From sequence record LC739533.1: a stretch of DNA of 64,000 nucleotides. One strand, written 5' to 3'. The notes under the pieces were generated by a model, which was not told where the DNA came from, did not search any database, and was given only the letters and a program-made list of their open reading frames with translations. Of this stretch, positions 1,065-15,336 are shown piece by piece. The stretch is from Escherichia phage phiWec179. Made by a program: the position numbers and the translations under genes. Within the stretch, counting starts at the first letter, position 1, and every line of letters starts with the position of its first letter.

Positions 1065-1087
1065 GATTTTTCTCTCTTCTGTTTTGA

Positions 1088-1147: not shown

Positions 1148-1155
1148 GGATATTT

Positions 1156-1437: not shown

Positions 1438-1447
1438 AGTGTGCCCC

Positions 1448-1558: not shown

Positions 1559-1565
1559 GTTTTCC

Positions 1566-1649
1566 TTACAGTGTCCAAAGAATGATTTCAAGTGCAGCAC
1601 GGAAACCAGGAATAAAATTGATTGCAAAAAACAGGGAAGTAGTAAACAT
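1566..1649 (-). CDS. Putative tiny hydrophobic peptide (27 aa)
   Basis: MFTTSLFFAINFIPGFRAALEIILWTL; ATG about 20 nt downstream of the copy 4 hairpin. Confidence 0.25.
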   Translation of the reverse strand: MFTTSLFFAINFIPGFRAALEIILWTL

Positions 1650-1671
1650 TTTTCTATCCTTTCAGTTGTGA

Positions 1672-1727
1672 GCGGCACCATTGCCGCCTGATGAGTTAAC
1701 TATAAGGGATCACGTTTTACCTGTCAA
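1672..1727 (-). promoter_or_regulatory. Early promoter (TTGACA-N17-TATAGT) with conserved 5' leader hairpin, copy 4
   Basis: Minus strand: -35 (1722-1727), -10 (1699-1704), then TAACTCATCAGGCGG and hairpin GCGGCAAUGGUGCCGC (1672-1687). Confidence 0.55.
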
Positions 1728-2281
1728 CCTAAATCATCAAAATAAAGATAATTTTTTTCGGCTTCTTTCTTCTCTTCCTGTGATGCCTCAAAGACTGGGA
1801 GAAAGTGATCAAAGGCGACGCACTCAACCGCTTGATCGTCTTCCTCTTCCTGGTCTTCCTCCTGGGCTATGGCTGCAATTTTGGCTAATTTCCTTTCAGC
1901 CTGGATCAGCTTACCATCTAAAACGCTTTTAGCGGTGCTGTACGCCGTCCAAGTGATGCGCTTACTTTCCAGCGCGGCATCAAGCGCCGCTATCTTGCTG
2001 GGGTATTCATCCAGGACACGAAAAGCCGGATCTACCTTGTACAGCGGATTATCTTTCGCGCCGTCGCTATCATCTGCGGCGCTTGCAATGTCAGCGTTAC
2101 CATTCGCCAGCCAACCAGGGCGATCGCTGCGTGTTTTGGTATTCCCATGACTACGCGCCGATCTGTTGCCTACTTGCTCGCCACTATAGCCAGGAGCATG
2201 ATCGATCATGTCGTCCGGTATAATGCGCGGATCATTAACGTCATGTTTTACCCAGGACTGGATCACATATTCGCGCCCCAT
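1724..2281 (-). CDS. Hypothetical protein (185 aa)
   Basis: Intact ORF with acidic C-terminal region (EEDQEEEDD); no motif recognised. Confidence 0.6.
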   Translation of the reverse strand: MGREYVIQSWVKHDVNDPRIIPDDMIDHAPGYSGEQVGNRSARSHGNTKTRSDRPGWLANGNADIASAADDSDGAKDNPLYKVDPAFRVLDEYPSKIAALDAALESKRITWTAYSTAKSVLDGKLIQAERKLAKIAAIAQEEDQEEEDDQAVECVAFDHFLPVFEASQEEKKEAEKNYLYFDDLG

Positions 2282-2541
2282 TATACACCCCTTTTAACAA
2301 TCATTTCACACACAAGAAATAAGCTGGCGGAATCACGGCAAGGATAGAAAGATGTACGATAATCTCTCACCCCTGCTTTTATGATCTCCGTGGTTTTACC
2401 TGATAGCACATTGTAAATAGTGTAACTTGTCGGACTGTTTTTATATACCTTGCCAGGGTAGATCATAACATAACGAGCAAGGTTATAAAATTCCTCGTTA
2501 CGAAAGGCTATGATCTTCCCGCATACCTTAAGAAAGTGCAC
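2281..2541 (-). CDS. Hypothetical protein (86 aa), GTG start
   Basis: GTG at 2539-2541 preceded by AAGGGGG RBS; stop overlaps the start of the downstream gene. Confidence 0.45.
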   Translation of the reverse strand: MHFLKVCGKIIAFRNEEFYNLARYVMIYPGKVYKNSPTSYTIYNVLSGKTTEIIKAGVRDYRTSFYPCRDSASLFLVCEMIVKRGV

Positions 2542-2551
2542 GTTAGCCCCC

Positions 2552-2824
2552 TTACAGCAAAAAGTTTACTTGTCTTGCTGTTAATGTAGTATCAACCATT
2601 TTCGGGCTTTTATAATTGACAAAACGCGCGGTTTTTTCAATAGCGAAGCCGAGATAATCTTGTTTGTTGAAATTACATTCTTTCTTAAATGTTTCCCGTG
2701 CAATGGCGATCGCTGCGTCCAGGGATAAACGCCCGTCAATATTGATATTTGCGAAAGATCCGCCACCGCTCATAGGTTTACCAGTGGTGCCCGTTACGAT
2801 CATTGTTGCGCTATATGATGCCAT
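2552..2824 (-). CDS. Hypothetical protein (90 aa)
   Basis: Start taken at the internal Met (MASYSATMIV...) downstream of the copy 5 hairpin; the track start at 2860 lies inside the hairpin. Confidence 0.55.
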   Translation of the reverse strand: MASYSATMIVTGTTGKPMSGGGSFANINIDGRLSLDAAIAIARETFKKECNFNKQDYLGFAIEKTARFVNYKSPKMVDTTLTARQVNFLL

Positions 2825-2846
2825 GATGATAATCTCTCTTAGTTGT

Positions 2847-2908
2847 GAGCGGTGGACCATTCCGCCGCTCTACGTGATACATCTTATCAGGTTGTTGCCT
2901 GTTGTCAA
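2847..2908 (-). promoter_or_regulatory. Early promoter (TTGACA-N16-TAAGAT) with conserved 5' leader hairpin, copy 5
   Basis: Minus strand: -35 (2903-2908), -10 (2881-2886), then GTATCACGTAGAGCGGCGG and hairpin 2847-2870. Confidence 0.6.
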
Positions 2909-2914
2909 TACTTT

Positions 2915-3112
2915 TTATTCAAGCCCTACGATATGTAAGACACGGCGATTAGCAATAGCGTGCTGGTCTTCTGTTATAACGCCCATTTCTACCAGTGAAT
3001 CAAGAAAGGAAAGCACCGTGATATATTCGTCATCGGGTACACTCATTTCATTAGTACCGTTTACCACTACGTTGATTTGTCCTGCTTTCGCTACAATGTG
3101 CAATGTTGCCAT
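2915..3112 (-). CDS. Hypothetical protein (65 aa)
   Basis: Intact ORF with GGAG RBS; first gene of the leftward small-gene cluster. Confidence 0.5.
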   Translation of the reverse strand: MATLHIVAKAGQINVVVNGTNEMSVPDDEYITVLSFLDSLVEMGVITEDQHAIANRRVLHIVGLE

Positions 3113-3309
3113 GATCTTAACTCCAGGTGATGAATGATGTTTTTTGTTGGTTGACGGTGGATTATGGAGATCCTCACCTTTGCCCGTCCTGCATTGCGCC
3201 CTCCTGTTGTTTATTGTCGTTGTGCCTCGCCCCCCTCGACAAGATTAATACTACGCTACCAGGTGCGGAACGTCAACGACTTTTTCAATCTTTTTTATTT
3301 TCTTTTTGC

Positions 3310-3338
3310 TTGCTATATATAAAGGAAAGGGCTATCAT
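3310..3338 (+). promoter_or_regulatory. Putative sigma70-like promoter (TTGCTA-N17-TATCAT)
   Basis: Hexamers at 3310-3315 and 3333-3338, upstream of the rightward ORF at 3387. Confidence 0.35.
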
Positions 3339-3386
3339 CTTTCTACCGCGCCAACCAGGGCGCACAACAGAAGAAAGGGCGACACC

Positions 3387-3653
3387 ATGACAACTACTAC
3401 ATTACACCTTATGCACTCGTTAGGCTGGCAAGGCGGCACGGTCCACCAGGTAGCAAGCGCAACGGGCTTAAAGGTTGAAACAGTTCTCAACCTGGGCGAT
3501 CATAAAGTGGAAGAGATAGACCATTTTGATCCGTTCGCTGATGGTTATCTCTGGGCTTGCAGTGGCGGCGGGGAAAGCAAGATACCGCCAGCCGCGCGGG
3601 GCGATATGCATTTTTGGTTAGGTGTTCTCTCCTGGCAAGAAAACAAAAAATAA
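3387..3653 (+). CDS. Hypothetical protein (88 aa)
   Basis: ORF MTTTTLHLMHSLGWQGG...; divergent from the leftward cluster. Confidence 0.45.
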   Translation: MTTTTLHLMHSLGWQGGTVHQVASATGLKVETVLNLGDHKVEEIDHFDPFADGYLWACSGGGESKIPPAARGDMHFWLGVLSWQENKK

Positions 3654-3655
3654 TC

Positions 3656-3684
3656 TTGACAAGCCCAGGGATCGGGCTTATACT
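3656..3684 (+). promoter_or_regulatory. Consensus sigma70 promoter (TTGACA-N17-TATACT) firing into a non-coding region
   Basis: Perfect -35 at 3656-3661, 17-nt spacer, -10 TATACT at 3679-3684. No credible ORF with an RBS lies downstream before about 4470. Confidence 0.6.
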
Positions 3685-3908
3685 GTTTTACATACAGAAG
3701 AGGAAGCGCCACCCCACGGCGTAAAGGCGGGGCTAACATACCAGGGGCACTGGTTGGAAGGTCGATCGCCGGGAGGCTGGGCGCTATATATTTGTAAAGA
3801 AATGTAAAGATAAAATAATCGCTTGCTTTCCTGGCTGGATCTGTTATTCTTATTACATGGCGAGGGGACACGGGAGCGCGAGACAATCACCGGACCTGCC
3901 CGTCATTC

Positions 3909-4020
3909 TGCAAATGAGAAAAATTCTCATTTGCAAATAAGACTCATTCGCATTTAATAATTGAATGAGAATCATTCTCATTCTCATTCGTATTTCGATT
4001 TTAAGTGAGAATAATTCTCA
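3909..4020. repeat. Three palindromic operator-like sites with core TGAGAA-N1-3-TTCTCA
   Basis: Palindromes at 3909-3935 (12-bp arms), 3963-3983 (10-bp arms) and 4006-4020 (7-bp arms). Confidence 0.7.
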
Positions 4021-4034
4021 TTTCGGTAATTTTC

Positions 4035-4219
4035 ACGTAAACTTTAGAATTTGCTTTTCAACTTTCACTTTTGTAAAAGCAAAAAAACTTTAAATACCTG
4101 GTGCGCGCGACTTTTTAAAAAATTTTTCTCGGTTTTTTGCTTTGAAATCTGGCCCACCAATTTGAGATAGTGTACGTAAACTTTAGAATTTGGTTTTGGA
4201 TTCTCACTTTTGTAAACTC
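4035..4219. repeat. Imperfect ~46-bp direct repeat pair plus TTGAGATA triplet
   Basis: ACGTAAACTTTAGAATTT identical at 4035-4052 and 4174-4191, with similar extensions ending ACTTTTGTAAA. TTGAGATA occurs at 4162, 4248 and 4271. AT-rich context. Confidence 0.7.
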
Positions 4220-4375
4220 GTAAAAAGTTTAAATAATTGTAGGGATTTTGAGATAGTTTGCTTGTAAGGTTTGAGATAATCCTTCCCGAAGATGTTACGC
4301 AGCCTACAGCCTACCTGAATGCTCGTCTAACGAGATTAACTCTAAAAGATGAGTGTTGGTGTAGCTAAAGAGAAA

Positions 4376-4402
4376 AGGCTCTCTACGGTGTTGTAGGAGC
4401 CT
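4376..4402. terminator. Intrinsic terminator hairpin, probably bidirectional
   Basis: Stem AGGCUC/GAGCCU with extended CUAC/GUAG pairing; T-rich tail on the minus strand (UUUUCUCUUU) after the leftward operon, weaker T-tract on plus. Confidence 0.55.
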
Positions 4403-4473
4403 TATTTCTGTGGCACAAAGTTGACGTATTCTTTTTAAAAACGAATTTTTTCAAAATATCACGAATATCGCCT

Positions 4474-5001
4474 TTATGGTATTTTGGCTGGGAACAGGAT
4501 TTTAATCAGATTGTTGTGGTATTGTCCTAAAAGATTCTGCCCTTTCCAGTTGGCAGGATTAAGCACCCCTGGTTCGTACATACCCATTCCAATTCCGTAA
4601 ACCTTATCATAAGGACTCGCCTCAACGAACGTTTTGAATTGGTACAGTCGCAAGTCAGAATAAAGATCAGGGTTCTGTGTATACTTCAAGCATAAGCCTC
4701 GCATTACGATACGCTCTCGGTACTCTTCCCACATGTCATTATTAAAACCAGACACCGCTCGACCCATGCGCTTGTAGTATGCCTGTCCCTTCTCGTCGTC
4801 ACGCTTCATTGAGTGATCAAGGATAGCTGCTGCGATTACCTGATCCTTGAACAGCAAAGCCTTACGCCACATCATGTATTGCTCTACACAACAGAAAGTT
4901 TCATTGTACCCTGGTTCCGTCTCTGTGAATGGTGCAATGTACCAATTGCTAAACACATCTTTATGTGAAAAGAAGAATACATATTCATTAGTTATTCGCA
5001 T
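4474..5001 (-). CDS. NADAR (YbiA-like, DUF1768) domain protein; candidate ADP-ribosyl-guanine hydrolase
   Basis: Recalled YbiA/NADAR family motifs: FFFSHKDVFSNWY, CCVEQYMMWRKALLF, RMGR, YTQNPDL...FVEASPYD..YGIGMG...NLLGQ. Confidence 0.8.
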   Translation of the reverse strand: MRITNEYVFFFSHKDVFSNWYIAPFTETEPGYNETFCCVEQYMMWRKALLFKDQVIAAAILDHSMKRDDEKGQAYYKRMGRAVSGFNNDMWEEYRERIVMRGLCLKYTQNPDLYSDLRLYQFKTFVEASPYDKVYGIGMGMYEPGVLNPANWKGQNLLGQYHNNLIKILFPAKIP

Positions 5002-5176
5002 TTTTCATGCCTCTTAAGACTTCAGCTTGCCCGTCTTGAAAAGCTTTCATCAGAACTATCTTAAGATTGACTTCCAAGCGTTCTTCATCCTCTTTATAAC
5101 AATCCAACACTGCCTTAAGTTCATCATAGTGGTTCAGAATAGGTTTAAAGATTTCATGATCTGCTAAACGTGCCAT
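4988..5176 (-). CDS. Hypothetical protein (62 aa)
   Basis: Start at MARLADHEIF with AAGGAG RBS; the track's upstream Met at 5212 has no RBS. Confidence 0.5.
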   Translation of the reverse strand: MARLADHEIFKPILNHYDELKAVLDCYKEDEERLEVNLKIVLMKAFQDGQAEVLRGMKNANN

Positions 5177-5189
5177 AGTTTCTCCTTTG

Positions 5190-5555
5190 TTAGTCCATCC
5201 ACCAGTAGCCATAAACTGCGTCTGCGTCGATGAGTTTGTGTTTGTTGTTCCGCATGTAGTCTAAGATAAGTAGACGTTTATTGTATCTGGAGAGATTATG
5301 ACCCTCTTTTCCGCCATAGTCAAAATATTTTGCAAGACTTTTACACTCAAACAAAATCAGTTCGGGAGTTTCTTCACATTGGTCTGTCTGGTACACTTGA
5401 CGGATGATCATGTATACGTCATCGTCTTCCGCTAAGTGCTCTACTGGTCCACACCCAGCAGGAATAAATTCATAGTCCCATCGAATCAGATGTTTCTCTA
5501 CTGCTTCAAAGAAATCCATTTTTTCGCTACGCATGATCTGAACATCAATTAACAT
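5190..5555 (-). CDS. Hypothetical protein (121 aa)
   Basis: ORF with AGGAGG RBS; overlaps the stop of the upstream gene. Confidence 0.55.
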   Translation of the reverse strand: MLIDVQIMRSEKMDFFEAVEKHLIRWDYEFIPAGCGPVEHLAEDDDVYMIIRQVYQTDQCEETPELILFECKSLAKYFDYGGKEGHNLSRYNKRLLILDYMRNNKHKLIDADAVYGYWWMD

Positions 5556-6561
5556 AATTTTCCTCCTGTCTCATTATTCCACCTGCTTGGTTGATAGCAC
5601 TTAAGACAACAGCCAAATCCTCACGCAGGAAGGTTTCACTATGACCGTCTTTCATGTGCAACGCTTCCACACAGCCGATAGACGGTAGGATCTGATCAGT
5701 CTTAGATTTTAGCTTACTCTCTAACGCCCTGCAAGCCTGGTAGGACGGCAGATCAAACAATGCTACACGTTGCATAAAGTAGTTATTATTTGCATTCTGA
5801 ATCTTCAAACGTATATCACTATCCTTTGCAATCCCCAGCTTGAAAGCTCCCGTATCTTCTCCATACTCATCAAGGATAACGTTGATGTAAAATTCTTGCT
5901 GTGATCTGCCTTTACATTCAGAACAACCATTCCCACTTAGATACTTATTAGGTGTTATCGTTTGTTCTCCGTGCTCACTACATAAATATTTAAACTTAGA
6001 CATGGTTCCCACCTTACCAACGAACCCTATAAACTGGTCCCCTCGTTCCTGGCAAGCTTCAGTCATACGGAAAATCCATTGCGCAGGAGTGTAACGATGG
6101 TTTTTAGAACAACGGCAAGCAAGCAGCCCATCTCTAAGACTGCTCCTCGTTACTTCAAACCTACCGTTACACACGCCAGCCTTTACATATTCGTCATGAG
6201 AACATACGGAACACTTAACTATCCAATAAGCCGCCCATCCTTTACTATCTAATCTATCACTACGATAATACTCACGCGGAACGTTATCAGGACACGCTTT
6301 GTTAAAGGTTGTGATATGGATTGAATCATCAATTAAACATGTTTGCCTTATTGCTTCCACCCTACAACCTTTACAACCACTTCCTATTTTAGCATTATCT
6401 ATAGAAGTTGTTCTCCATTCCCCATGTATAGAACATTCACAGGTTAGTTTAGTGCGTGCCCCCTTCCATTCACCATGCCACCCCGTAATGGTCCACGGTT
6501 TATCCTGGTAAGCTTGTTCTATTTCTTCCTGATATTCCTCCCAACTTTTAGCCCTCATCAT
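5545..6561 (-). CDS. T5orf172-type (GIY-YIG superfamily) domain protein with N-terminal Cys-rich repeats; homing-endonuclease-like
   Basis: C-terminus FKLGIAKDSDIRLKIQN...ACRALESKL...KDGHSETF fits the T5orf172 pattern; CxxC / C..HG repeats in the N-terminal part. Paralog of 10129..11082. Confidence 0.6.
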   Translation of the reverse strand: MMRAKSWEEYQEEIEQAYQDKPWTITGWHGEWKGARTKLTCECSIHGEWRTTSIDNAKIGSGCKGCRVEAIRQTCLIDDSIHITTFNKACPDNVPREYYRSDRLDSKGWAAYWIVKCSVCSHDEYVKAGVCNGRFEVTRSSLRDGLLACRCSKNHRYTPAQWIFRMTEACQERGDQFIGFVGKVGTMSKFKYLCSEHGEQTITPNKYLSGNGCSECKGRSQQEFYINVILDEYGEDTGAFKLGIAKDSDIRLKIQNANNNYFMQRVALFDLPSYQACRALESKLKSKTDQILPSIGCVEALHMKDGHSETFLREDLAVVLSAINQAGGIMRQEENYVN

Positions 6562-6575
6562 CCCCCCTACAACAA

Positions 6576-6593
6576 ATGCCCCTTGCGGGGCAT
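6576..6593 (-). terminator. GC hairpin (AUGCCCC-UUGC-GGGGCAU), terminator-like
   Basis: Between the AAA+ ATPase stop and the T5orf172 start; weak U-tract on the minus strand. Same GCCCCTTGCGGGGC core as the late terminator at 49347-49360. Confidence 0.35.
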
Positions 6594-6598
6594 CTTTA

Positions 6599-7738
6599 TT
6601 AGAACACGCTACTTAAGGTTGCAGATCGTGTAGTGGTTGGTTCCAGAACCACACGGAACGTATCCCCAGGTTTATCGCTCACTACTACAATCTTACCACC
6701 TTCGATCAGGTCACACTTCAAACCTTCGGCAGTAGCTTTCAGGTCGATGCGTGGATCGCCATCATCATCCAGGATAACGTAGCTGCTATCTTCGAGAGGC
6801 TCCAGTTCTTCGTCTTTCACGGCTTCCAGGTAGATGTTCAGTTCACATGCACCAGACAAGAACTTGGTAGGAGTGAACTCATGCCAGTTGTTGACCCAGT
6901 TAGGCTTGATAGCTTTACCGTTGACAACAATAGAGCTAATCGTCCAGCGTGCATCGTTACCCAGAGAGATACCCATCATCTCCAGACAGGTCTTGAACGT
7001 CATTTTCGGATAGAAGTTTAACTCTTCTACGATCCCTTGAATAACATCGAAAGACAGTTCAGTGCTAACATCCCACAAACGTTGGAAGCTTTCAACATGT
7101 TTGCGATTCTTCAGATTCTTGTCCAGGTAGTCCAGCATAGTTTCAATAGACAGTTTGTCGTAGTTGAAGCTATAGAAGATACGGCTCGGACGGTTGACGA
7201 AGTATTCCGAGATGTATCCGCTGTTCTTTGTCAGCATGAACAGTTTGTTACCGCTACCTGTGCCATCCAGCAGAGTCAGCAGTGCTTCCTGATCTTCCTT
7301 CTTGGAATACACTTTGTCGAACTCATCGAACAGTACTACTGCGCGTTCAGAGATCTTACTCATGAACTCCAGGAAATTGGCATCAGAATATGGCTGCGTT
7401 ACCAGAATAGTTGGGATTCCCAGGTCTTCCGCTTCCAACAGAGTGTTACTGATCAGTTTTGCCAGCATTGTCTTGCCACTGCCTTTTGTACCCGACAACA
7501 GGACACCTGTGTTCTTACCTTCTTTACTACGACGAGCGAAGGTACGGATAACGTGGGCTGCACGTTCTTTGGTTTCCCCGTACAGGCGATCAGGAATCGT
7601 GAACTTATCAGCGCGACTAAGAGAATAGTTACCATGTGGATCACAATTGACAGTCCAAACGCCAGCGGGGAGTTTATCAACCTCTACACCAAAATCTTTA
7701 TTAACAATTGCAACATCCCCATAAACTGTGTATTTCAT
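6599..7738 (-). CDS. AAA+ family ATPase
   Basis: Walker A GTKGSGKT, Walker B VVLFDEFD, downstream arginine-containing segment NRPSRI. Confidence 0.75.
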   Translation of the reverse strand: MKYTVYGDVAIVNKDFGVEVDKLPAGVWTVNCDPHGNYSLSRADKFTIPDRLYGETKERAAHVIRTFARRSKEGKNTGVLLSGTKGSGKTMLAKLISNTLLEAEDLGIPTILVTQPYSDANFLEFMSKISERAVVLFDEFDKVYSKKEDQEALLTLLDGTGSGNKLFMLTKNSGYISEYFVNRPSRIFYSFNYDKLSIETMLDYLDKNLKNRKHVESFQRLWDVSTELSFDVIQGIVEELNFYPKMTFKTCLEMMGISLGNDARWTISSIVVNGKAIKPNWVNNWHEFTPTKFLSGACELNIYLEAVKDEELEPLEDSSYVILDDDGDPRIDLKATAEGLKCDLIEGGKIVVVSDKPGDTFRVVLEPTTTRSATLSSVF

Positions 7739-7763
7739 TTACTTTCTCCTCTTCTGTTGGAAT

Positions 7764-7798
7764 AGACGTATTATCTCTTGTCTAATACGTCTTGTCAA
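7764..7798 (-). promoter_or_regulatory. Promoter (TTGACA-N17-GATAAT) embedded in a 10-bp inverted repeat
   Basis: Minus strand: -35 (7793-7798), -10 (7770-7775). Perfect inverted repeat AGACGTATTA (7764-7773) / TAATACGTCT (7783-7792) spans the -10 box. Confidence 0.5.
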
Positions 7799-7806
7799 TA
7801 CTTGTT

Positions 7807-8166
7807 TTAGATCCCTTCGCCTTTAGTGATGATAGCTTCCATCACCACAGCTTTCTTCTTACGTTGAACATCTTGACGGATCAGGAGGCTACCACCTTGA
7901 TCATCCTTATACTGCTTCATGATGATGAAGTTGTTGCCACACACAGCGCCGATAGCCACGTATGGGCGATTAGAATTATCCACATCCGCAGATGGGGTTA
8001 CATCCGTGCAAGTAAAGAACTTGCCATCAGGATCAGTATAAGCAAAGTGGCCTTTAGCAGTTACTGCAACTTCTCCGGTGCTTGTGGACTGTGCAGCCAC
8101 AAACGGTGCAGCAGATGCTACGAAACTTGCAGACAGCAGGGCTACAGCTAAAATAATCTTTTTCAT
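7807..8166 (-). CDS. Secreted protein with N-terminal signal peptide (119 aa)
   Basis: MKKIILAVALLSASFVASA then mature domain; AGAGGAG RBS. Confidence 0.65.
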   Translation of the reverse strand: MKKIILAVALLSASFVASAAPFVAAQSTSTGEVAVTAKGHFAYTDPDGKFFTCTDVTPSADVDNSNRPYVAIGAVCGNNFIIMKQYKDDQGGSLLIRQDVQRKKKAVVMEAIITKGEGI

Positions 8167-8178
8167 GGTGATCTCCTC

Positions 8179-8340
8179 TTATTCCAACAACATACACAAT
8201 GCAGCTACAACCAAGAACAGAGTAGCCACGCTTAAAGCGATAAACATTCCTAATTGAGAATGAAATTCGCCTATGATAGGTGCAGACAACGCACTTAGCA
8301 AACAACCTGTCAAACTTGCTTTGATAATAAGATCTAACAT
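8179..8340 (-). CDS. Small hydrophobic membrane protein (53 aa)
   Basis: MLDLIIKASLTGCLLSALSAPIIGEFHSQLGMFIALSVATLFLVVAALCMLLE; strong AGGAGG RBS; not in the ORF track. Confidence 0.45.
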   Translation of the reverse strand: MLDLIIKASLTGCLLSALSAPIIGEFHSQLGMFIALSVATLFLVVAALCMLLE

Positions 8341-8348
8341 ATTACCTC

Positions 8349-8600
8349 CTACAATTCCACAATAGTTTTATCTAAGTGGTGTGCCTCAACTTGAGATAAG
8401 GTTAGCACTTCAACCAAACCTCTGTCAATACCTAATTTGATCACTTGCAAATAATCACCGAAAAGATCAGAGATTTCAATCTGGTGTTCAGTAACCACCA
8501 CGACCTCGTTACCCTTGGTATACTCTCTCCAGATTCGTCCACACTTATAAATGAAATCTTTCTGGTCTTCACTGATCATCTTAGGCTTAACGCTTAACAT
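8349..8600 (-). CDS. Hypothetical protein (83 aa)
   Basis: Intact ORF with GGGAG RBS; ATG overlaps the upstream stop. Confidence 0.55.
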   Translation of the reverse strand: MLSVKPKMISEDQKDFIYKCGRIWREYTKGNEVVVVTEHQIEISDLFGDYLQVIKLGIDRGLVEVLTLSQVEAHHLDKTIVEL

Positions 8601-8938
8601 TACATACTCCCGTAGTCTGGTTCAATATGGTGTTTACGACAAATAGCATCCCAACGTTCACTACCGAAACCCCGTCCGTGTAGTGCATCGTATGCGAAAT
8701 GTTCTGCCAACCACAATACTACACCATCTGGTTCAGTGTCAAGCGGAATTCGAAATTCTCGATCATAACGCATACGGAGAACAAACTCATTACCGTCTTC
8801 CAGGAGATGCATGTGACTTTTCGCTCGTGATGCCAAGTCAAAGAAAGGTGCCTCGTCTTTCCAAACCTGGCGCTCAACCTCAATACCGTGATCAACTACC
8901 AGGGTAGCAATCACATCTTTCATTTCTTTACTAAACAT
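8600..8938 (-). CDS. Hypothetical protein (112 aa)
   Basis: Start at MFSKEMKDV with AGGAGGG RBS; the track start at 8968 would overlap the upstream gene by 22 nt. Confidence 0.55.
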   Translation of the reverse strand: MFSKEMKDVIATLVVDHGIEVERQVWKDEAPFFDLASRAKSHMHLLEDGNEFVLRMRYDREFRIPLDTEPDGVVLWLAEHFAYDALHGRGFGSERWDAICRKHHIEPDYGSM

Positions 8939-8946
8939 ATTCCCTC

Positions 8947-9192
8947 CTAATAATGTTTTAAAGTCCACTCAATACCTGACGGGTAACTGCCTCGACAAAT
9001 CTTACCATCGGAATGCCAGTTAATGCTATCAGGGAAAGTATGATTTAGTGTTTTTTCATGAGGAAGCCATTCTGTAGGCTTCTCTCCACCATTGATCCAT
9101 ACAAAACCTTCGTCTTCCAGTAAACCTAAAGCAAACTCCATCTCTTCTGCATCGTGAACCGTTACTTTCTGACCTTTCTGTAATTTAATCAT
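8947..9192 (-). CDS. Hypothetical protein (81 aa)
   Basis: Intact ORF in the leftward operon. Confidence 0.55.
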   Translation of the reverse strand: MIKLQKGQKVTVHDAEEMEFALGLLEDEGFVWINGGEKPTEWLPHEKTLNHTFPDSINWHSDGKICRGSYPSGIEWTLKHY

Positions 9193-9201
9193 ATTACCCC
9201 C

Positions 9202-9375
9202 TTAACCAATTAGTTGGACTGCCTTGCAGATGTAAATCCAAACAGGACTAAGCATAAGTGCTACAATACTGGGGTAAATCCCTTTTGGCTCTATCTCAAT
9301 TATTGATAAGATTAAGGTGACAGCACTGATAAACATATAAGCTCCCAAGAAAGCCAGCGTCAAGAATTCAGACAT
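9202..9375 (-). CDS. Small membrane protein (57 aa)
   Basis: Start at MSEFLTLAFLGAYMFISAVTLIL with GGAG RBS; two hydrophobic segments. Confidence 0.5.
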   Translation of the reverse strand: MSEFLTLAFLGAYMFISAVTLILSIIEIEPKGIYPSIVALMLSPVWIYICKAVQLIG

Positions 9376-9377
9376 AA

Positions 9378-9710
9378 TTAGCTCCACAAGTTATGAAAAT
9401 ATTCAGCAAACAGGCAACGACCTTCGATTTTATCCGTTTTGGTCATAACGGATTCAGGTTTAAAACCTTCAATCATTTGATCAATAATGGATAACCACTC
9501 CACTGTAGCTTCCCGCTCCTGCTCTTCTGTTAGTTTACGGTAATCTGACACATATTTAGCCCAAATCTTAGATGGGATAAGGATATCCCCTCGTTCCACA
9601 ATACGTGCCTTGAACGCGTACAGTCCAGCACAGATAATCGCGGAGAACGTATCATCCAGGTCTTGCAGATCTTCTACGCCAAATTGTAATTCATCATGGA
9701 TAATTTTCAT
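9378..9710 (-). CDS. Hypothetical protein (110 aa)
   Basis: Intact ORF; 4-nt overlap with the upstream gene. Confidence 0.6.
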   Translation of the reverse strand: MKIIHDELQFGVEDLQDLDDTFSAIICAGLYAFKARIVERGDILIPSKIWAKYVSDYRKLTEEQEREATVEWLSIIDQMIEGFKPESVMTKTDKIEGRCLFAEYFHNLWS

Positions 9711-9994
9711 TTTGTTTCTCCCCGCTCTGCGTCTAATTTCAATAAGAAGGCTGCATACTCTTCCGAACCTTTGTGTAAGAACATACGATAAGAACTCACC
9801 AGTTTCTTCGTTGTTGTATAACGCTCCATTCCGCCGACAACCCCTGTACCGAGAGTGTAGAGAACAACACCTTCAACCCCAACATGGGTTACGACTTCAA
9901 CCATGTCCGTGTTATCCCAGTGATATTTAGGGGATACAATAAGATCGCCAACTGCTAATTTGATGTTTGCCGCTTCGTCTTGTGAATAGTACAT
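9707..9994 (-). CDS. Hypothetical protein (95 aa)
   Basis: First gene of the leftward operon, downstream of the divergent promoter. Confidence 0.6.
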   Translation of the reverse strand: MYYSQDEAANIKLAVGDLIVSPKYHWDNTDMVEVVTHVGVEGVVLYTLGTGVVGGMERYTTTKKLVSSYRMFLHKGSEEYAAFLLKLDAERGETK

Positions 9995-10039
9995 TTTGTT
10001 CTCCTCTCACATTAGGACACGTTTTGTGTCGATGGGTGT

Positions 10040-10104
10040 AGATTACGTGAGCACAAAGGGGTTGTCAACTACTTATTGACAAAAATTTCTAAACGTTGTA
10101 AATT
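10040..10104. promoter_or_regulatory. Divergent back-to-back sigma70-like promoters
   Basis: Plus: TTGACA (10076-10081)-N17-TAAATT (10099-10104). Minus: TTGACA (10063-10068)-N17-TAATCT (10040-10045). The -35 boxes form the palindrome TTGTCAA-N7-TTGACAA (10062-10082). Confidence 0.6.
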
Positions 10105-10128
10105 AAAAACATCTACAAAGGAGGAAAC

Positions 10129-11082
10129 ATGAAATACGAAGATTTTAAACAAATAGTTAAAGACGATGTGGTATTTGAGAACTTACAGGAAGGTTGTGAA
10201 GTCTTAGGTTGGACAGAAAGAGATAGAAACTTTGCAAAAATATACGTAATACGTTGTAGTGTTTGTGCCAAAGACCCCGAAATGTATGGAGATGGTCTTT
10301 TTACAGCTACAAAAGGGCGTTTAGTGAAAGGTCAGAAATGTTGCGCGTGCGCTGTATCCTTTAAATACAGTCAAAACCAACACCTAATTCTGCTAAACAG
10401 GCATTTAAGTGTCGCAGGGTACAGCATAGTTTCTATTGGTGCTTGGGAGTGTTCTAAGACGAGAATAGAGTTTAGTTGTGAGAATGGACACACGAAGAAC
10501 AGAACCCTGGCTCAAGCAAAGGTAGTAGAACCTTGTAAACAGTGTCTTGAAGAAGGCTGTACAAAACACAAACAAGATGAGGCAGAGGCAAAAATTATGA
10601 AGATAATAGAAGATAAATGTTTACCTTATGTATTTGTAGGGTGGGATACTTCTTACAAGAATGTAACTTCAAAATTCAACCTCATCTGTTCGGATCACGG
10701 TTTAAAAACAATAAGATACGCTTGTTTCCTAAATGGTCATTTTTGTAACGAGTGTTCTGGTAGAAATTGCCTAAGTCTTTATTTATTAGGAGTTTATGAT
10801 AGAGACTTGTTGGTAGGTTTAAAATTTGGCATCTCTCAGAGTCCAGTAAGAAGGGTTCAACAGTTAAATAAAAGGAACTTATTTAAATGTAAAATACTAC
10901 AGATTTGGACTTTTACATCACATGATCAAGCTGTACGGATGGAAACATTATTAAAGAACACATTGCGAACTGGAATATTTACTAAAAGAGAGATGAAAGA
11001 TGGTCATACAGAAACCACAGAAGTTACTAATTTAGAAACCATAATGGACCTTATGACCTCATCTCATGGATTGGTTAGTTAA
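10129..11082 (+). CDS. T5orf172-type (GIY-YIG superfamily) domain protein with N-terminal Cys-rich repeats; homing-endonuclease-like
   Basis: C-terminus LKFGISQSPVRRVQQLN...AVRMETLLKN...KDGHTET; CxxC / C..HG repeats. Paralog of 5545..6561. Confidence 0.6.
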   Translation: MKYEDFKQIVKDDVVFENLQEGCEVLGWTERDRNFAKIYVIRCSVCAKDPEMYGDGLFTATKGRLVKGQKCCACAVSFKYSQNQHLILLNRHLSVAGYSIVSIGAWECSKTRIEFSCENGHTKNRTLAQAKVVEPCKQCLEEGCTKHKQDEAEAKIMKIIEDKCLPYVFVGWDTSYKNVTSKFNLICSDHGLKTIRYACFLNGHFCNECSGRNCLSLYLLGVYDRDLLVGLKFGISQSPVRRVQQLNKRNLFKCKILQIWTFTSHDQAVRMETLLKNTLRTGIFTKREMKDGHTETTEVTNLETIMDLMTSSHGLVS

Positions 11083-11377
11083 CAAAAACCTTAACATTTC
11101 CGATGTTCTTGCTGACTTCTTGTGAGAACATTGAAAGTACCTTGTCAAGCAGTTTTACTAATTCATTTGTAATTTGTTCCTCTGAACGAGAAGAAGTAAG
11201 TACCTTACTCTCACCAACGATGTGCATCACCTTGATAGGAGCATTCAGGATAACATTGTGCTTTTCATCTTCTTCGAAAGATGCTAACCACTTCTCATTA
11301 TTCCCGTGCAAAGCCACGATAACACCAAAACCGTTAATAGTTTGTGAAATGTTCTTAGTTGCTAATGTAATGTTCAT
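11075..11377 (-). CDS. Hypothetical protein (100 aa), antisense-oriented within the rightward block
   Basis: Own promoter and AGAGAGG RBS; 3' end overlaps the 3' end of 10129..11082 by 8 nt. Confidence 0.55.
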   Translation of the reverse strand: MNITLATKNISQTINGFGVIVALHGNNEKWLASFEEDEKHNVILNAPIKVMHIVGESKVLTSSRSEEQITNELVKLLDKVLSMFSQEVSKNIGNVKVFVN

Positions 11378-11405
11378 TGTTCACCTCTCTTAATAATGTA
11401 GGGCT

Positions 11406-11433
11406 ATTGTACACTAAAAATATTTCAGGTCAA
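11406..11433 (-). promoter_or_regulatory. Promoter (TTGACC-N16-TACAAT) for 11075..11377
   Basis: Minus strand: -35 (11428-11433), -10 (11406-11411). Confidence 0.5.
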
Positions 11434-11494
11434 GTGTTGACAAGCTTTTTGGTTCTGTTATGATTAGCTCATACTAAATGAGAGGAGAAAACAA

Positions 11495-11932
11495 ATGCAA
11501 AACATCAAACTGACTTGGACCGAAGCTAAAGAAGCAATGAAGGAAGGTAGACGTGTTAAACACGAGTATTTCTGTGGTGGGGAATGGTTTGAGATGCAAT
11601 ATGGTGTTATTCTGGACGAACATGGTTATAATATGACTGATTGGTATCGTGACGAAGCTTGGCAGGATGATGGTTGGTCTGTGGTTGAGAAAGAAGGTAA
11701 TGAGGAAGAAGGACTGTTGTCTAATGTAGAGCGCGAAATGCGGGAAACAAAGGTGCCCGAACTGGACTACCATCACCTGGAACTTCTTGTGGCAGCATCT
11801 TTCGCTACTGGAGATACAATGTGGCAAACTCCGGTGTCCCGTGTCGATAACCAAAATAAACCGTCTGCCCGTAATCACAAGCTTTACAAAGGTAAAGGTC
11901 ATAACAAACTGAAGAAAGGAAAGAAGAAATGA
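11495..11932 (+). CDS. DUF2829-like protein (the family that includes anti-Thoeris Tad2) with Lys-rich C-terminal extension
   Basis: N-terminus LTWTEAKEAMKEGRRVKHEYF and later WQDDGWSVV resemble the recalled DUF2829 pattern; family call is from memory. Confidence 0.4.
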   Translation: MQNIKLTWTEAKEAMKEGRRVKHEYFCGGEWFEMQYGVILDEHGYNMTDWYRDEAWQDDGWSVVEKEGNEEEGLLSNVEREMRETKVPELDYHHLELLVAASFATGDTMWQTPVSRVDNQNKPSARNHKLYKGKGHNKLKKGKKK

Positions 11933-12075
11933 TCTACAAAAACAAGTTCACTGGTTGTCTACGTAAGTTTGTCGATAAAAAAGGTTATGTTTCGCTTGAC
12001 AACGGGACTACATGGGTGCAGAATGGGACTTCAGAACAATTGATCAAGGCTCTGCCTTACTACGAGGAGGTTTAA
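11929..12075 (+). CDS. Small hypothetical protein (48 aa)
   Basis: ATGA-coupled to the upstream gene; ends immediately before the next ATG; not in the ORF track. Confidence 0.4.
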   Translation: MIYKNKFTGCLRKFVDKKGYVSLDNGTTWVQNGTSEQLIKALPYYEEV

Positions 12076-12399
12076 ATGTCCAACAATCTGTTTAGCGTGT
12101 CAATCGCACCGCGTGTTAATATTCGCTGTCAGTTTGTTACCTTGCCAGGCGTGACACACATTACTTTAGAGTATGATCCTCGTTCACGAGAGAACCCAAT
12201 TACAGGCAAGATTGATTCAGCCTACGGCGACTTCCTAATGGATCACCAAGCGATCTTATGTTGTGTGCAACGCTTACAGGCAGGGTCTTTATACATCTTT
12301 AAGAAGTCTGTGTTCCAAGAGATTGCTCAAGCAGTTGAAAGCGGTATGGAGACTCTTAACGCTATGATTGAAGCAGCCAACAAGAAGGAGGTTTTATGA
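12076..12399 (+). CDS. Hypothetical protein (107 aa)
   Basis: Tightly coupled operon member with GAGGAGG RBS. Confidence 0.6.
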   Translation: MSNNLFSVSIAPRVNIRCQFVTLPGVTHITLEYDPRSRENPITGKIDSAYGDFLMDHQAILCCVQRLQAGSLYIFKKSVFQEIAQAVESGMETLNAMIEAANKKEVL

Positions 12400-12653
12400 C
12401 ACTCTATCACGTAACCACTGAAGGCGATACCGAAGGTCGTACTACAAAAGACTTAGGGTATGTTGAAGCAGATTCGCCTGAACATGCAATCAAGTATCTG
12501 CACTCTATAGGGAAGTATGCAGGGTATAAATATGACATTCAAGAAGTTGAAGTCAACCCTGTACAAGTGGCAACACCTATGGTAGAGTTGCAGTATCTTA
12601 AAGCCAAGGTTACACCTGGGCCTTTGGGCGGTTATAAGGGAGAGGTAAAATGA
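12396..12653 (+). CDS. Hypothetical protein (85 aa)
   Basis: 4-nt overlap coupling; AAGGAGG RBS. Confidence 0.6.
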   Translation: MTLYHVTTEGDTEGRTTKDLGYVEADSPEHAIKYLHSIGKYAGYKYDIQEVEVNPVQVATPMVELQYLKAKVTPGPLGGYKGEVK

Positions 12654-12859
12654 GCGGTTGGATTAAGGTATCTGGCACCGAAGATGTTCCTGTAGGAGAG
12701 TGGCTTGTCATCATGGCAGACGGCAAGAAGGGCTTCTGTGAGGTGCACAAAGCCGCAAAAGGGACAATAGCAGTCATTAACCGTTTATTTTACTTTGACT
12801 GTGAACCTGTAATAGCGTATCATGCATTACCAACTTATGAAGAGGAGACTAACAAATGA
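12650..12859 (+). CDS. Hypothetical protein (69 aa)
   Basis: 4-nt overlap coupling. Confidence 0.55.
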   Translation: MSGWIKVSGTEDVPVGEWLVIMADGKKGFCEVHKAAKGTIAVINRLFYFDCEPVIAYHALPTYEEETNK

Positions 12860-13152
12860 GCCTTACCACTATGCACAAAACACTGCTCAAACTATTTAAC
12901 AATCAACGTAATCTTTTGATCGAAGATTTCCGTAGCTTTAAACGTAACAAGGTCAATCGTGCCTACATGCCTCATTCAGCCTTTGATGCCACGTTAAAAG
13001 AGTTTCGTAACCGTATCTCTGAAATGGATGCTTACATCCGTGGCACAAAGCTTGCACGCACAGTAACTATCCAAACAGGATTGTTGCACTTTTATGATGG
13101 AACTACCGGATCGATCTACAATCCAGACAGCATAGAGAATTATTTAAAATAG
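12856..13152 (+). CDS. Hypothetical protein (98 aa)
   Basis: 4-nt overlap coupling; last gene before the structured intergenic region. Confidence 0.55.
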   Translation: MSLTTMHKTLLKLFNNQRNLLIEDFRSFKRNKVNRAYMPHSAFDATLKEFRNRISEMDAYIRGTKLARTVTIQTGLLHFYDGTTGSIYNPDSIENYLK

Positions 13153-13354
13153 TTGTTGACTTTGATATACGAAGTATGCTACCCTACCCACGAAGTGCCG
13201 AGCGGGAGCGAGGTATAAGTGTTACCCTCCCGTTAGGGTAGAGGGTAGTAATTATAGTTTCTATCGTTAGATTGTTCGAAGAACAGAAACTTAGATCTTG
13301 TTCTTATCGTTAGATGATCGTAAGATCAAGAACATAATATAGAGGAGATAAAGA

Positions 13355-13891
13355 ATGAAATTGTTAGACTATGCGATGGTTATGGATCTTAGTGTGCTTC
13401 GTGACGATGCTCAATACATGACACAGAACCAGGATGGCACCTTAAACCTGTATTCTGCCTATCCACGTAATCATGGTCCAGTTACAACTTACGGTTGGGG
13501 TGATAGCAACTTCCTGGATTACTACCCAGCACCACGTAGCCTGGAAACTGCTGAAGATTGGTTCCACTCTATTATCAACTTGCAAGCAATCCGTGACTAC
13601 CAAGAGAGTGGGTCAGATAGCAACCTGGCAAATACATTGGGAACGTTGAATACCATCTCTTACAAAGAGAAGCCGCCTAAGCTTTACTTCCTGCGGGATA
13701 TTCCAGAAGGCACTTTCTTTGTCTATGGCGGTGCTGACGCTTCTGGTGAGCCTCCTATCTGGCAGAAAGTAGATGGCGGTTTAGCAGTTATGTTTGATAC
13801 AGGGATCACTTCTCCGCAAGATACTTTCTCTCAAGATCGTGTGTGGAAAATCTTGAAAGCGCATCTGACTGTTAGCCCAATCCGAGAATAA
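13355..13891 (+). CDS. Hypothetical protein (178 aa)
   Basis: Intact ORF with GAGGAG RBS. Confidence 0.6.
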   Translation: MKLLDYAMVMDLSVLRDDAQYMTQNQDGTLNLYSAYPRNHGPVTTYGWGDSNFLDYYPAPRSLETAEDWFHSIINLQAIRDYQESGSDSNLANTLGTLNTISYKEKPPKLYFLRDIPEGTFFVYGGADASGEPPIWQKVDGGLAVMFDTGITSPQDTFSQDRVWKILKAHLTVSPIRE

Positions 13892-13911
13892 TCCTAATCT
13901 GCAAATAAGTC

Positions 13912-13940
13912 TTGATCACGAGGTTGTATTCTGATAGAAT
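13912..13940 (+). promoter_or_regulatory. sigma70-like promoter (TTGATC-N17-TAGAAT)
   Basis: Hexamers at 13912-13917 and 13935-13940, upstream of the ORF at 13970. Confidence 0.5.
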
Positions 13941-13969
13941 GCAATCTCACTAAACAAAAGGAGATTTAA

Positions 13970-14167
13970 ATGGCTACGAAGAAACAAAAAATGAAGTGTC
14001 TGTCACTGACTCAACTGGGGCATAGTTCTGGTTGTGTGACGATCGGAAAAACCTACTCCACCACTTTGAATAAAGAGAACAACAGCTTTACATTCAAAGA
14101 TGACAATGGTAACATGCAAGTGGGGATTTACCCTGAGTGTGCATTCGGTACTTGGGAAAAAGTTTAA
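13970..14167 (+). CDS. Hypothetical protein (65 aa)
   Basis: ORF with AAGGAG RBS. Confidence 0.5.
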   Translation: MATKKQKMKCLSLTQLGHSSGCVTIGKTYSTTLNKENNSFTFKDDNGNMQVGIYPECAFGTWEKV

Positions 14168-14186
14168 TTAACTGATCGGAGGGAGT

Positions 14187-14360
14187 ATGCAAGACAAGAA
14201 AAACAATGTTCGTTATGCTTTGTACGGACGTATGGGCGTAGACTGCGAATGGAGACTTCTGTTACAGCGTATTCCCTCTTATCAAGAAGCTATGACGAAG
14301 AGAGAACATTATAAGAAGACGTGGAGACACGTTGTTTGCAAACATTACGAGGAGGCATAA
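14187..14360 (+). CDS. Small hypothetical protein (57 aa)
   Basis: MQDKKNNVRYALYGRMGVDCEWRLL...; GGAGGGAG RBS; stop overlaps the next ATG (TAATG); not in the ORF track. Confidence 0.4.
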   Translation: MQDKKNNVRYALYGRMGVDCEWRLLLQRIPSYQEAMTKREHYKKTWRHVVCKHYEEA

Positions 14361-14668
14361 TGAGCACATTATCAACAGCAGTCAAGTTCCACCAGGATTA
14401 TGAAGAAGCTGTCAAAGATGCTGACAATCCTTCCTCATTAGTGTTTGAGGATCGTACAGGTTTGAAGTGGGTTAAATCTTTCGATGAGATCTATTTCTGG
14501 TATCCGCAGGGAGCCACAAGCAATAGTTCTCTGTATAGCTACGAACTGGAATACCGTGGCCCTGTAGACGAAGATGAAAACTTTATCATGTATTTCGTAA
14601 ATAATGGTTGCGGTGAAACGTTTAATGTTGTATTCTCTAAAGCAGATGAGTCTGACGAGGAGGTGTAA
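14360..14668 (+). CDS. Hypothetical protein (102 aa), tandem paralog 1
   Basis: Start at MSTLSTAVKF after GAGGAGG RBS; shares ELEYRGPVDEDENFIMYFVNNGCGETFNVVF with the next gene. Confidence 0.6.
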   Translation: MSTLSTAVKFHQDYEEAVKDADNPSSLVFEDRTGLKWVKSFDEIYFWYPQGATSNSSLYSYELEYRGPVDEDENFIMYFVNNGCGETFNVVFSKADESDEEV

Positions 14669-14973
14669 TGCAGTACAATACGACTTTAAGTTTGGCAGTT
14701 GCAGCCCACATGCTGTACAATGATTCTGTGAAGGATGAGTTGTCGCCTGTGAGTTTAGCTTTCTATCTGATAGAAAGGGATTGGATGTTCTCTGGTGAGG
14801 ACGAAATCTACTACGTAAATTCGCGCGGTTTTATTGAAAGTTTTGAACTTGAACATCGCGCACCGACAGCAGAAGATGATCGTTTTATTATGTTCTGTGT
14901 AAATGATGGTTACGGAGAGGTATATGACGTAGTATTCTTCAAAAACCGACAGAAGACTGAAGAGGAATTCTAA
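14668..14973 (+). CDS. Hypothetical protein (101 aa), tandem paralog 2
   Basis: Carries ELEHRAPTAEDDRFIMFCVNDGYGEVYDVVF, matching the previous gene. Confidence 0.6.
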   Translation: MQYNTTLSLAVAAHMLYNDSVKDELSPVSLAFYLIERDWMFSGEDEIYYVNSRGFIESFELEHRAPTAEDDRFIMFCVNDGYGEVYDVVFFKNRQKTEEEF

Positions 14974-15336
14974 ATGAAAAAGCTACTTTGTGTCCTGATG
15001 TTGATGATTGCCACCAATGCTACAGCCGCCCGTGACGGTTTCAAGATTGGGGTGGAAGGTAGCCAATTCTTCACTTGGTACGGTGGTGAAGCTGTCTACC
15101 AGGTGGATGATAAAAAGTATAACTGTAAGTTTGATCGTATAGATCGTGGAGTAGATAATTGGGGCGACGCTTATAAAGCAACAGGTTTTTATTGCACCAA
15201 AGAAATCTACATTACGGTCAAAGAACCACAAGACAACAGAAAGGTGTTGTTTATTGTGATAAACCCTGCTAAATTTGAAGAACGTAAAGCTTACTATGCA
15301 GATATGTTCATTGAATACAAAAAGGAGGAAAAATGA
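14974..15336 (+). CDS. Secreted protein with signal peptide (120 aa)
   Basis: MKKLLCVLMLMIATNATAA signal peptide. Confidence 0.6.
   Translation: MKKLLCVLMLMIATNATAARDGFKIGVEGSQFFTWYGGEAVYQVDDKKYNCKFDRIDRGVDNWGDAYKATGFYCTKEIYITVKEPQDNRKVLFIVINPAKFEERKAYYADMFIEYKKEEK

Follow-up and report, generated by a model that had tools for sequence, protein, structure and literature searches.

Two diverged, predicted periplasmic paralogs of Escherichia phage phiWec179 and their possible role in superinfection exclusion

Within a 64,000-nucleotide stretch of the genome of Escherichia phage phiWec179 (LC739533.1), the window considered in this study, two small open reading frames (ORFs) encode diverged paralogs of a single small orphan family, phrog_5474/VOG7198. 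The first of them, ORF A (7807..8166, minus strand), specifies a precursor of 119 amino acids and is the fast-diverging paralog; the second, ORF B (14974..15336, plus strand), specifies a precursor of 120 amino acids and is the conserved one. Both begin with ATG. The relationship between the two was overlooked in the first-pass annotation of this DNA, which had noted each of them separately as an early secreted protein. Judging from their sequences, A and B very probably constitute a pair of exported periplasmic proteins. The further step, that the pair serves to exclude superinfecting phage or otherwise to protect the envelope of the infected cell, is taken more tentatively: the statement as a whole, export and function together, is one that we consider somewhat short of probable, and exclusion is the best single guess at function, on support that is circumstantial.

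That both genes are real and lie where the first-pass annotation had placed them is evident from the list of ORFs, from the annotated coding sequences (CDSs) of the close relative phiWec181, and from their Shine-Dalgarno sites. ORF A is preceded by GAGGAG (8173..8178, minus strand), seven nucleotides 5' of the ATG, and ORF B by AGAGGA (14961..14966, plus strand), both read from the sequence. The ATG of ORF B abuts the stop codon (14971-14973) of the preceding gene, and its own stop codon overlaps the ATG of the following gene. The corresponding CDSs of phiWec181, BDU12432.1 for A and BDU12453.1 for B, are both annotated as hypothetical. Comparison with close relatives indicates purifying selection on each: the codon differences are 14 synonymous against 3 nonsynonymous for ORF A and 13 against 4 for ORF B. 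Two antisense ORFs, at 7792-8151 (plus strand, 119 amino acids) and 14983-15345 (minus strand, 120 amino acids), are near-exact mirrors of A and B and were judged to be shadow ORFs; they are unannotated in phiWec181 and do not match the family profile. The regions containing A and B are 99.6-100% identical to those of Escherichia phages phiWec181 and phiWec186 (LC739534/5) and 94.7-98.9% identical to those of phiWec188, phiWec190, and the 'Pseudomonas' phage PsgM04F. GenBank places phiWec181 in the genus Phapecoctavirus of the Stephanstirmvirinae, and a separate genus, 'Wecvirus', was proposed in 2025 for the phiWec isolates (PMC12695924).

The paralogy of A and B is seen at several levels. 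BLASTP aligns the two proteins end to end, with 25% identity and E=6e-4. Both match phrog_5474, a family described as being of 'unknown function' (ORF A: E=5.6e-19, residues 1-113; ORF B: E=4.6e-32, residues 1-120), and the label VOG7198 is attached to the orthologs of both in Phapecoctavirus anhysbys; the profile matches are full-length and reveal no difference, so that phrog_5474/VOG7198 is the pair's own family. When a hidden Markov model of the family was run against a six-frame translation of the window, ORFs A and B were the sole matches (hmmsearch E=1.2e-34 and E=1.5e-45, respectively). When 1.84 billion representative proteins were searched exhaustively with the family profile, 24 matches emerged at E<=1e-3, with lengths of 102-126 amino acids except in two cases, a 75-amino-acid fusion product and a 109-amino-acid C-terminal fragment. 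Homologs of B are found in about 125 phage records. Some family calls are truncated or frameshifted (P0004, P0032, P0034, and P0035), and a portion of these may be assembly errors.

In silico evidence supports the claim of the first-pass annotation that both proteins carry canonical Sec signal peptides. They were judged by the features expected of substrates of signal peptidase I, namely a positive n-region, an unbroken hydrophobic h-region of ~8-15 residues, and small residues at positions -3 and -1. By this rule, the signal peptide of ORF A (8110..8166, minus strand) comprises residues 1-19, MKKIILAVALLSASFVASA, with predicted cleavage at ASA/AP (the slash marking the cut), and that of ORF B (14974..15027, plus strand) comprises residues 1-18, MKKLLCVLMLMIATNATA, with predicted cleavage at ATA/AR. 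Both N-termini have the type I layout of n-, h-, and c-regions, MKK-IILAVALLSASFVASA/AP in A and MKK-LLCVLMLMIATNATA/AR in B, and each has the features listed: an n-region MKK, an h-region IILAVALLSASFV, and ASA/A in the first, and MKK, LLCVLMLMIAT, and NATA/A in the second. Among the 310 mechanically called ORFs in the window with at least 50 amino acids, A and B rank top. The rule had six other hits; none is an ORF of 250 amino acids or more, no known gene lies behind them, and those within the 20 kb of phiWec181 annotation examined matched no annotated CDS. A lipobox ([LVI][ASTVI][GAS]C) was not found at the end of the h-region of either protein. The signal peptide of A is without Cys, and Cys6 of B is preceded by K-L-L and occupies a position where its orthologs have Phe. 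Nor was a second hydrophobic stretch seen in the mature part of A or B.

What holds for the pair holds for the family. A cleavable signal peptide is predicted in 25 of 30 members, even though identity among members is as low as 17-40%, and the five that appear to be without one are N-terminally truncated gene calls, a fusion, or representatives of a bacterial subgroup linked to Sel1. Apart from Met1, no column in alignments of 26 and of 30 sequences is invariant or nearly so except those of two Cys residues, corresponding to C53/C76 in A and C51/C74 in B. They are separated by 22-24 residues in the 25 members with signal peptides, and the mature part has exactly two Cys in 24 of these and a third in the one remaining. 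The next best conserved block is C-x8-G-[VI]-D-[ND]-x-[GA]-x-[PA]-Y-x4-F-x-C, followed by K-Q-x-x-D. A signal peptide and one Cys pair conserved throughout a family of small, fast-changing proteins make a good case for a location that is oxidising and outside the cytoplasm, and the predicted export of A and B is therefore well supported in silico.

The AlphaFold2 model of A has a predicted local distance difference test score (pLDDT) of 89.8 and a predicted template modelling score (pTM) of 0.77; that of B, 83.5 and 0.73. In both, the mature part is at a pLDDT of ~90 or above, while the N-terminus of A is helical with low pLDDT and residues 1-18 of B fall below 50. Both models are all-beta, a meander of 8-9 antiparallel strands, with one short helix in B. 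The segment between the conserved Cys residues (Cys53-Cys76 of ORF A, 7939..8010, minus strand; Cys51-Cys74 of ORF B, 15124..15195, plus strand) is modelled as a beta4-loop-beta5 hairpin. The conserved D-x-x-G-x-x-Y block forms the tip of the hairpin, loop 4, as DVDNSNRPY in A and GVDNWGDAY in B. Strands 54-62 and 68-76 of the model of A are adjacent and antiparallel, and in both models the two Cys residues lie on the neighbouring strands beta4 and beta5, no more than one residue off cross-strand register. With the Cys residues so placed, a disulfide stapling the beta4-beta5 hairpin is the natural reading of the models, and it is probable in both proteins.

Searches for similar structures gave few leads. 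Foldseek against PDB found for B only weak matches of the calycin type, the best of which was a DUF4251 protein (3fyf, E=9e-3, template modelling score (TM) 0.55), and for A every match had E>0.2 and TM<0.5. Further weak neighbours were ZinT, phenolic acid decarboxylase, CRABP/FABP, streptavidin/bradavidin, avidin, and LolA. The calycin-like barrels (BVU_3222 3fyf/4gdz, bradavidin/avidin, ZinT, and FABP) have in common with the models of A and B an up-and-down antiparallel barrel or meander, but with TM of 0.44-0.55, identity of 8-10%, and no common motif, the likeness permits no functional inference. A structure search of BFVD returned family members from Phapecoctavirus, Klebsiella phage Menlow, and others.

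How might such proteins serve in superinfection exclusion? A and B would be made as precursors of ~120 amino acids, exported by Sec, and cleaved by signal peptidase I (at ASA/AP and ATA/AR) to give soluble periplasmic proteins of ~100 amino acids. The mature protein would fold into a compact antiparallel beta meander or barrel of 8-9 strands, with the long beta4-beta5 hairpin stapled by its single disulfide, probably the work of DsbA. The tip of the hairpin, with the block G-[VI]-D-[ND]-x-[GA]-x-[PA]-Y, would be the likely binding surface. Through it, the proteins might bind some part of the envelope, or of a phage arriving at the cell, and the infected or lysogenic cell would thereby be shielded from secondary infection or from attack on its envelope. 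In functional class, they would be exclusion factors of the Spackle/Llp type, encoded by dispensable accessory genes, with the conserved B perhaps directed towards a conserved target and the fast-diverging A towards a variable one. The idea fits the export signal, the variable slot in which A resides, the dispensability seen with B, and the genomic company kept by relatives of the pair.

The slot of ORF A is distinguished by rapid change. The protein is 39% identical to its positional ortholog, gp073 of P. anhysbys; in the same vicinity, the downstream AAA ATPase is 80% identical between the two phages and the product of the gene at 8349-8600 is 95% identical. Upstream of ORF A is a gene encoding a protein of 53 amino acids (8179..8340, minus strand), which has two hydrophobic segments, by eye likely two transmembrane helices. 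The stop codon of this gene lies 12 nucleotides before the ATG of ORF A, and the two genes are probably co-transcribed. The 53-amino-acid protein is 47% identical to its counterpart in P. anhysbys and so diverges about as fast as A. It is a possible partner of A, in an association that is not universal: a gene of this type is absent from the contig of a metagenomic relative (P0030), and a comparable small hydrophobic gene is present in the same slot in Justusliebigvirus alia. There, upstream of the same ATPase, the small hydrophobic peptide accompanies an unrelated protein, hydrophobic and predicted to span the membrane several times. With this replacement in J. alia, and with A and the 53-amino-acid peptide diverging as they do, the slot is a variable locus for envelope proteins.

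ORF B is 96.7% identical to gp053 of P. anhysbys, and J. alia has an ortholog in which the signal peptide and the two Cys residues are likewise present. The Phapecoctavirus and 'Wecvirus' genomes examined carry two copies, A and B, and the one Justusliebigvirus checked carries the B copy only. B is dispensable, as there are natural deletion variants. In syntenic contigs from three metagenome samples, codons 1-29 of B are joined, in frame, to the 3' portion of a DUF4326 gene, a deletion that removes the mature part of B along with a gene of 120 amino acids (15333-15695) from a phiWec181-like phage (e.g., ENA ERZ13616481 NODE_494).

Relatives outside the Stephanstirmvirinae are encountered in jumbo Klebsiella phages (KpLz-2_45, FBKp24, and Centimanus) and on dense phage-like contigs. 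One is an opposite-strand moron within a lambda-like prophage, another lies at the end of a prophage, adjoining recombinases, and another is on a large plasmid of E. fergusonii. A copy extended by Sel1 adjoins an insertion sequence (IS) element, a HigB toxin gene with an adjacent gene for a helix-turn-helix domain protein, and prophage tail-fibre genes. In a chromosomal islet represented by 24 contigs, the relative has an integrase-like gene on one side and a GmrSD-type restriction gene on the other. Such locations are typical of exclusion and defence genes, though this is an association only, drawn from a small sample and circumstantial. When genome contigs were searched for bacterial homologs with a profile made from a sub-family alignment, no locus was confirmed. 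Three members of the bacterial subgroup, P0036, P0028, and P0033, have no signal peptide as called. In P0036 (Enterobacter kobei CP050073), a Sel1-like N-terminal extension comes directly after an IS3-type transposase, and copies of this type may be fragments of a larger secreted Sel1-repeat protein.

To our knowledge, the mechanism is known for few of the phage proteins that work in the periplasm, the main examples being Spackle and Imm of T4, Llp of T5, and Cor. The statement in the first-pass annotation that early periplasmic proteins of lytic phages commonly mediate exclusion overstates the number of documented cases. Llp of T5 and the Cor family are exported, disulfide-containing lipoproteins of the outer membrane that block receptors and so protect the infected or lysogenic cell. 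They have a lipobox Cys, whereas A and B have type I AxA cleavage sites and no lipobox, and PHROG and Pfam searches detected no similarity in sequence between them and the pair. Spackle (gp61.3) inhibits the tail lysozyme gp5 of T4. It resembles A and B in its small size and in the signal peptide and periplasmic location predicted for them, but its structures are helical while the models of A and B are all-beta. Spackle is reported to be a small protein whose signal peptide is cleaved off and which works in the periplasm of the infected cell (PMC7677548, PMC7650644), and, as an early periplasmic protein that confers exclusion, it is a precedent for the role proposed for A and B (PMC7677548).

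Several considerations weigh against that role. No relation in sequence or fold to a known exclusion or defence protein emerged from searches of PHROG, Pfam, PDB, and PADLOC: Pfam gave no match at E<=1 for A, B, or 26 family members, the family profile matched none of the PDB sequences, and the defence profiles of PADLOC-DB matched neither A, B, nor the 53-amino-acid neighbour. The PHROG that contains Spackle, phrog_1586, matched ORF A in the region of the signal peptide only (residues 1-37, E=0.19) and did not match ORF B. The signal peptides were called with a home-made rule (n-, h-, and c-regions plus residues -3/-1) and not with SignalP, and the disulfide was deduced from the conservation of the Cys residues and the register of their strands, and not from model coordinates. 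The evidence from genomic context comes from a handful of loci. Furthermore, B is highly conserved and sits amid replication-associated genes, in a plus-strand cluster that continues into a gene for a UvrD-type helicase and, in J. alia, runs into genes for anaerobic ribonucleotide reductase; a housekeeping-like interaction with the host envelope fits these facts equally well. Finally, a search of the literature found neither transcript data nor functional work for the Stephanstirmvirinae or for any member of the family.

Perhaps A and B are modulators of the host envelope with no connection to exclusion, binding a periplasmic or outer-membrane protein of the host, a small ligand, or a lipid in the manner of calycins, whether so that the envelope stays in working order throughout infection or, in the case of prophage morons, so that the host gains a trait that increases its fitness. 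This seems unlikely, yet it deserves serious attention. The structural neighbours of the models are solely ligand binders of the calycin type (DUF4251, avidin/bradavidin, ZinT, FABP/CRABP, and a LolA), the conservation of B across genera (97% identity to Phapecoctavirus, with an ortholog in Justusliebigvirus) would suit an invariant host target, and the moron contexts fit traits of lysogenic conversion of any kind. However, structural matches that are no better than E=9e-3 and TM 0.55 for B and E>0.2 for A imply no ligand-binding family, barrels of ~100 amino acids usually have a filled core, and the divergence of A and turnover within its slot look more like conflict between phages.

It is improbable, though still worth weighing, that A and B inhibit periplasmic peptidoglycan hydrolases (lysozyme or lytic transglycosylase), having converged upon the properties of MliC/PliC, PliI, PliG, and Neisseria ACP. 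By this account, the conserved loop between beta4 and beta5 would enter the active site of a muramidase, either tail-associated or exogenous, providing either an exclusion like that of Spackle or protection against lysis from without, so that inhibition of a hydrolase could itself be a mechanism of exclusion. The bacterial inhibitors are periplasmic 8-stranded barrels of ~100 amino acids, with one disulfide and a motif, SxSGAxY, on loop 4, to which MliC/PliC add YxxxTKG on beta6 and a disulfide that joins beta1 to beta8 (PMC5507604). The lead was pursued because A and B are similar in size, in predicted periplasmic location, in modelled 8-stranded beta architecture, in having one probable disulfide, and in bearing their top motif, which ends in Tyr, on loop 4. 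B-type members have G-x-x-Y at loop 4, and 4 of 30 members have S-G-x-x-Y. The BFVD search also brought up a protein of Serratia phage Moabite (E=1.8e-5) that is labelled 'putative lysozyme inhibitor', but no basis for this annotation was found in the literature.

The sequences and models argue otherwise. In A and B, the disulfide would join beta4 to beta5, not beta1 to beta8, YxxxTKG is absent, and SxSGAxY is not kept; S-G-x-x-Y is present in the loop 4 of neither protein, and that of A, S-N-R-P-Y, has no Gly. A mini-profile of MliC/PliC built from sequences that included MliC of E. coli MG1655 was compared with the family by hhalign, as was PliG from the same strain, and the probabilities returned were 0.3% and 0.8%, respectively. 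The negative result with Pfam at E<=1 extends to the MliC and Ivy models, and no structure of a lysozyme inhibitor appeared in the top 50 Foldseek matches in PDB to either model. Membership in MliC/PliC (PF09864) was therefore rejected, and a place for A and B in the PliG or PliI families of lysozyme inhibitors seems unlikely. A fuller version of the hypothesis is a shade more doubtful still. It would make phrog_5474 an independently evolved class of periplasmic peptidoglycan-hydrolase inhibitors with a disulfide-stapled hairpin, an [SD]-G-x-x-Y-type loop, and two specificities, that of the conserved B and that of the fast-evolving A, present in the Stephanstirmvirinae and jumbo phages. They would disable the enzymes with which competing phages pierce the cell wall, and would thus be a beta-barrel counterpart of Spackle, captured also by prophages and defence islands.

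There is little to recommend the notion that A and B are periplasmic regulators of the timing of lysis, acting as an antiholin or as a sensor of lysis inhibition. T4 RI, a small exported phage protein that works in the periplasm, offers an analogy, and both ORFs are predicted to be exported and appear dispensable. Lysis inhibition is mentioned in connection with T4 and N4 (10.1101/2025.11.12.688109). Neither gene, however, is near genes for lysis; both lie among small genes of early type and replication genes. Moreover, family members occur alone as prophage morons and in a bacterial island where genes for phage lysis are lacking, and the cleavage sites are of the AxA form and not like the features of signal-anchor-release (SAR) proteins. 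Least credible of all is that A and B are not exported, the hydrophobic segment being an uncleaved signal anchor or some feature of ordinary small cytoplasmic phage proteins, for although export was predicted by a simple rule and the bacterial subgroup (P0028, P0033, and P0036) is without signal peptides as called, the h-regions are short (9-13 residues) and followed by AxA, the layout is kept at 17-40% identity, an invariant pair of Cys residues, in a small protein that otherwise varies, points to an oxidising compartment, and the exceptions are truncated or fused calls, one of them adjoining an IS element.

To return to exclusion, if A and B block secondary infection, or if they neutralise cell-wall hydrolases, then they bear on the design of phage cocktails, since the members of a cocktail could exclude each other. 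Phages of Phapecoctavirus and 'Wecvirus' are used in therapy collections, and the family is compact and testable, with confident AlphaFold models at hand. A role in exclusion, if true, would also bring a new fold to the small set of exclusion factors that act at the level of the envelope. If neither role applies, A and B would be an ordinary pair of hypothetical exported proteins.

The arrangement of genes and promoter-like sequences makes early expression of A and B plausible. Each belongs to a cluster of small genes, and the two clusters run in opposite directions from an intergenic region in which a scan for consensus sequences found a divergent pair of near-consensus sigma-70-like promoters (11406..11464, both strands), TTGACA-16-TATGAT with a TG on the plus strand and TTGACC-16-TACAAT on the minus strand. 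These are candidate start points for the clusters that hold B and A. ORF B is upstream of the helicase gene and genes of nucleotide metabolism, an order that fits an early or middle region. A near-consensus promoter-like site, TTGACA-17-GATAAT (7770..7798, minus strand), agrees with the sigma-70 consensus at 11 of 12 positions and is located in the 68-nucleotide gap between ORF A and the ATPase gene. In P. anhysbys and in the P0030 contig there is no such gap, the A-type gene abutting the start of the ATPase gene. Sigma-70-like sites are frequent in this part of the genome: across 4500-17500 they number 40, as against 28.9 expected, and at 1-5000, on the strand that codes for the small genes clustered there, they number 27, as against 11.7 expected from shuffled sequences. 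The minus strand of positions 1-3000 has near-consensus sites of the form TTGACA-16/17-TATAGT/TATTAT/CATAAT at 1727, 1534, 808, 531, and elsewhere, within the spacers of ~80-90 nucleotides that separate its small genes, and this run of putative promoters suggests many independently promoted early genes.

Some observations concern the neighbours of the pair. Directly upstream of ORF B are two genes, 14360-14668 and 14668-14973 (plus strand), that are themselves tandem paralogs (43% identity, E=2e-20); their products have no match in Pfam and no signal peptide. Two genes downstream of B, at 15697-16065 (plus strand), is the gene for a 122-amino-acid DUF4326 protein (PF14216, E=5e-21), which several phage records call 'NrdA-like ribonucleotide reductase', a name that looks like a propagated misannotation. 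Repeats of the CapR homology domain (PF21817) are found in the products of the genes at 5545-6561 (minus strand) and 10129-11082 (plus strand), which are 28% identical to each other (E=2e-14). The latter has in addition a weak, sub-threshold match to MUG113 (PF13455), which we take to be a domain of the T5orf172 type, and it is set on the opposite strand inside a minus-strand cluster, with no counterpart at that position in P. anhysbys. The two look like mobile genes of the homing-endonuclease type. A functional link of A with the downstream AAA ATPase and a CapR-domain gene was considered and rejected as unsupported. The ATPase is an AAA protein of generic type; for its part, the CapR/MUG113 gene is mobile in appearance, with a second copy on the other strand.

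A last observation concerns the records used for comparison. OR584014 (PsgM04F), MG065650 (B15), and OP562383 (ABPW7) are labelled as phages of Pseudomonas, Campylobacter, and Acinetobacter, respectively, but in the regions compared they are 87-99% identical to the genomes of Stephanstirmvirinae that infect E. coli, and their host labels deserve caution.

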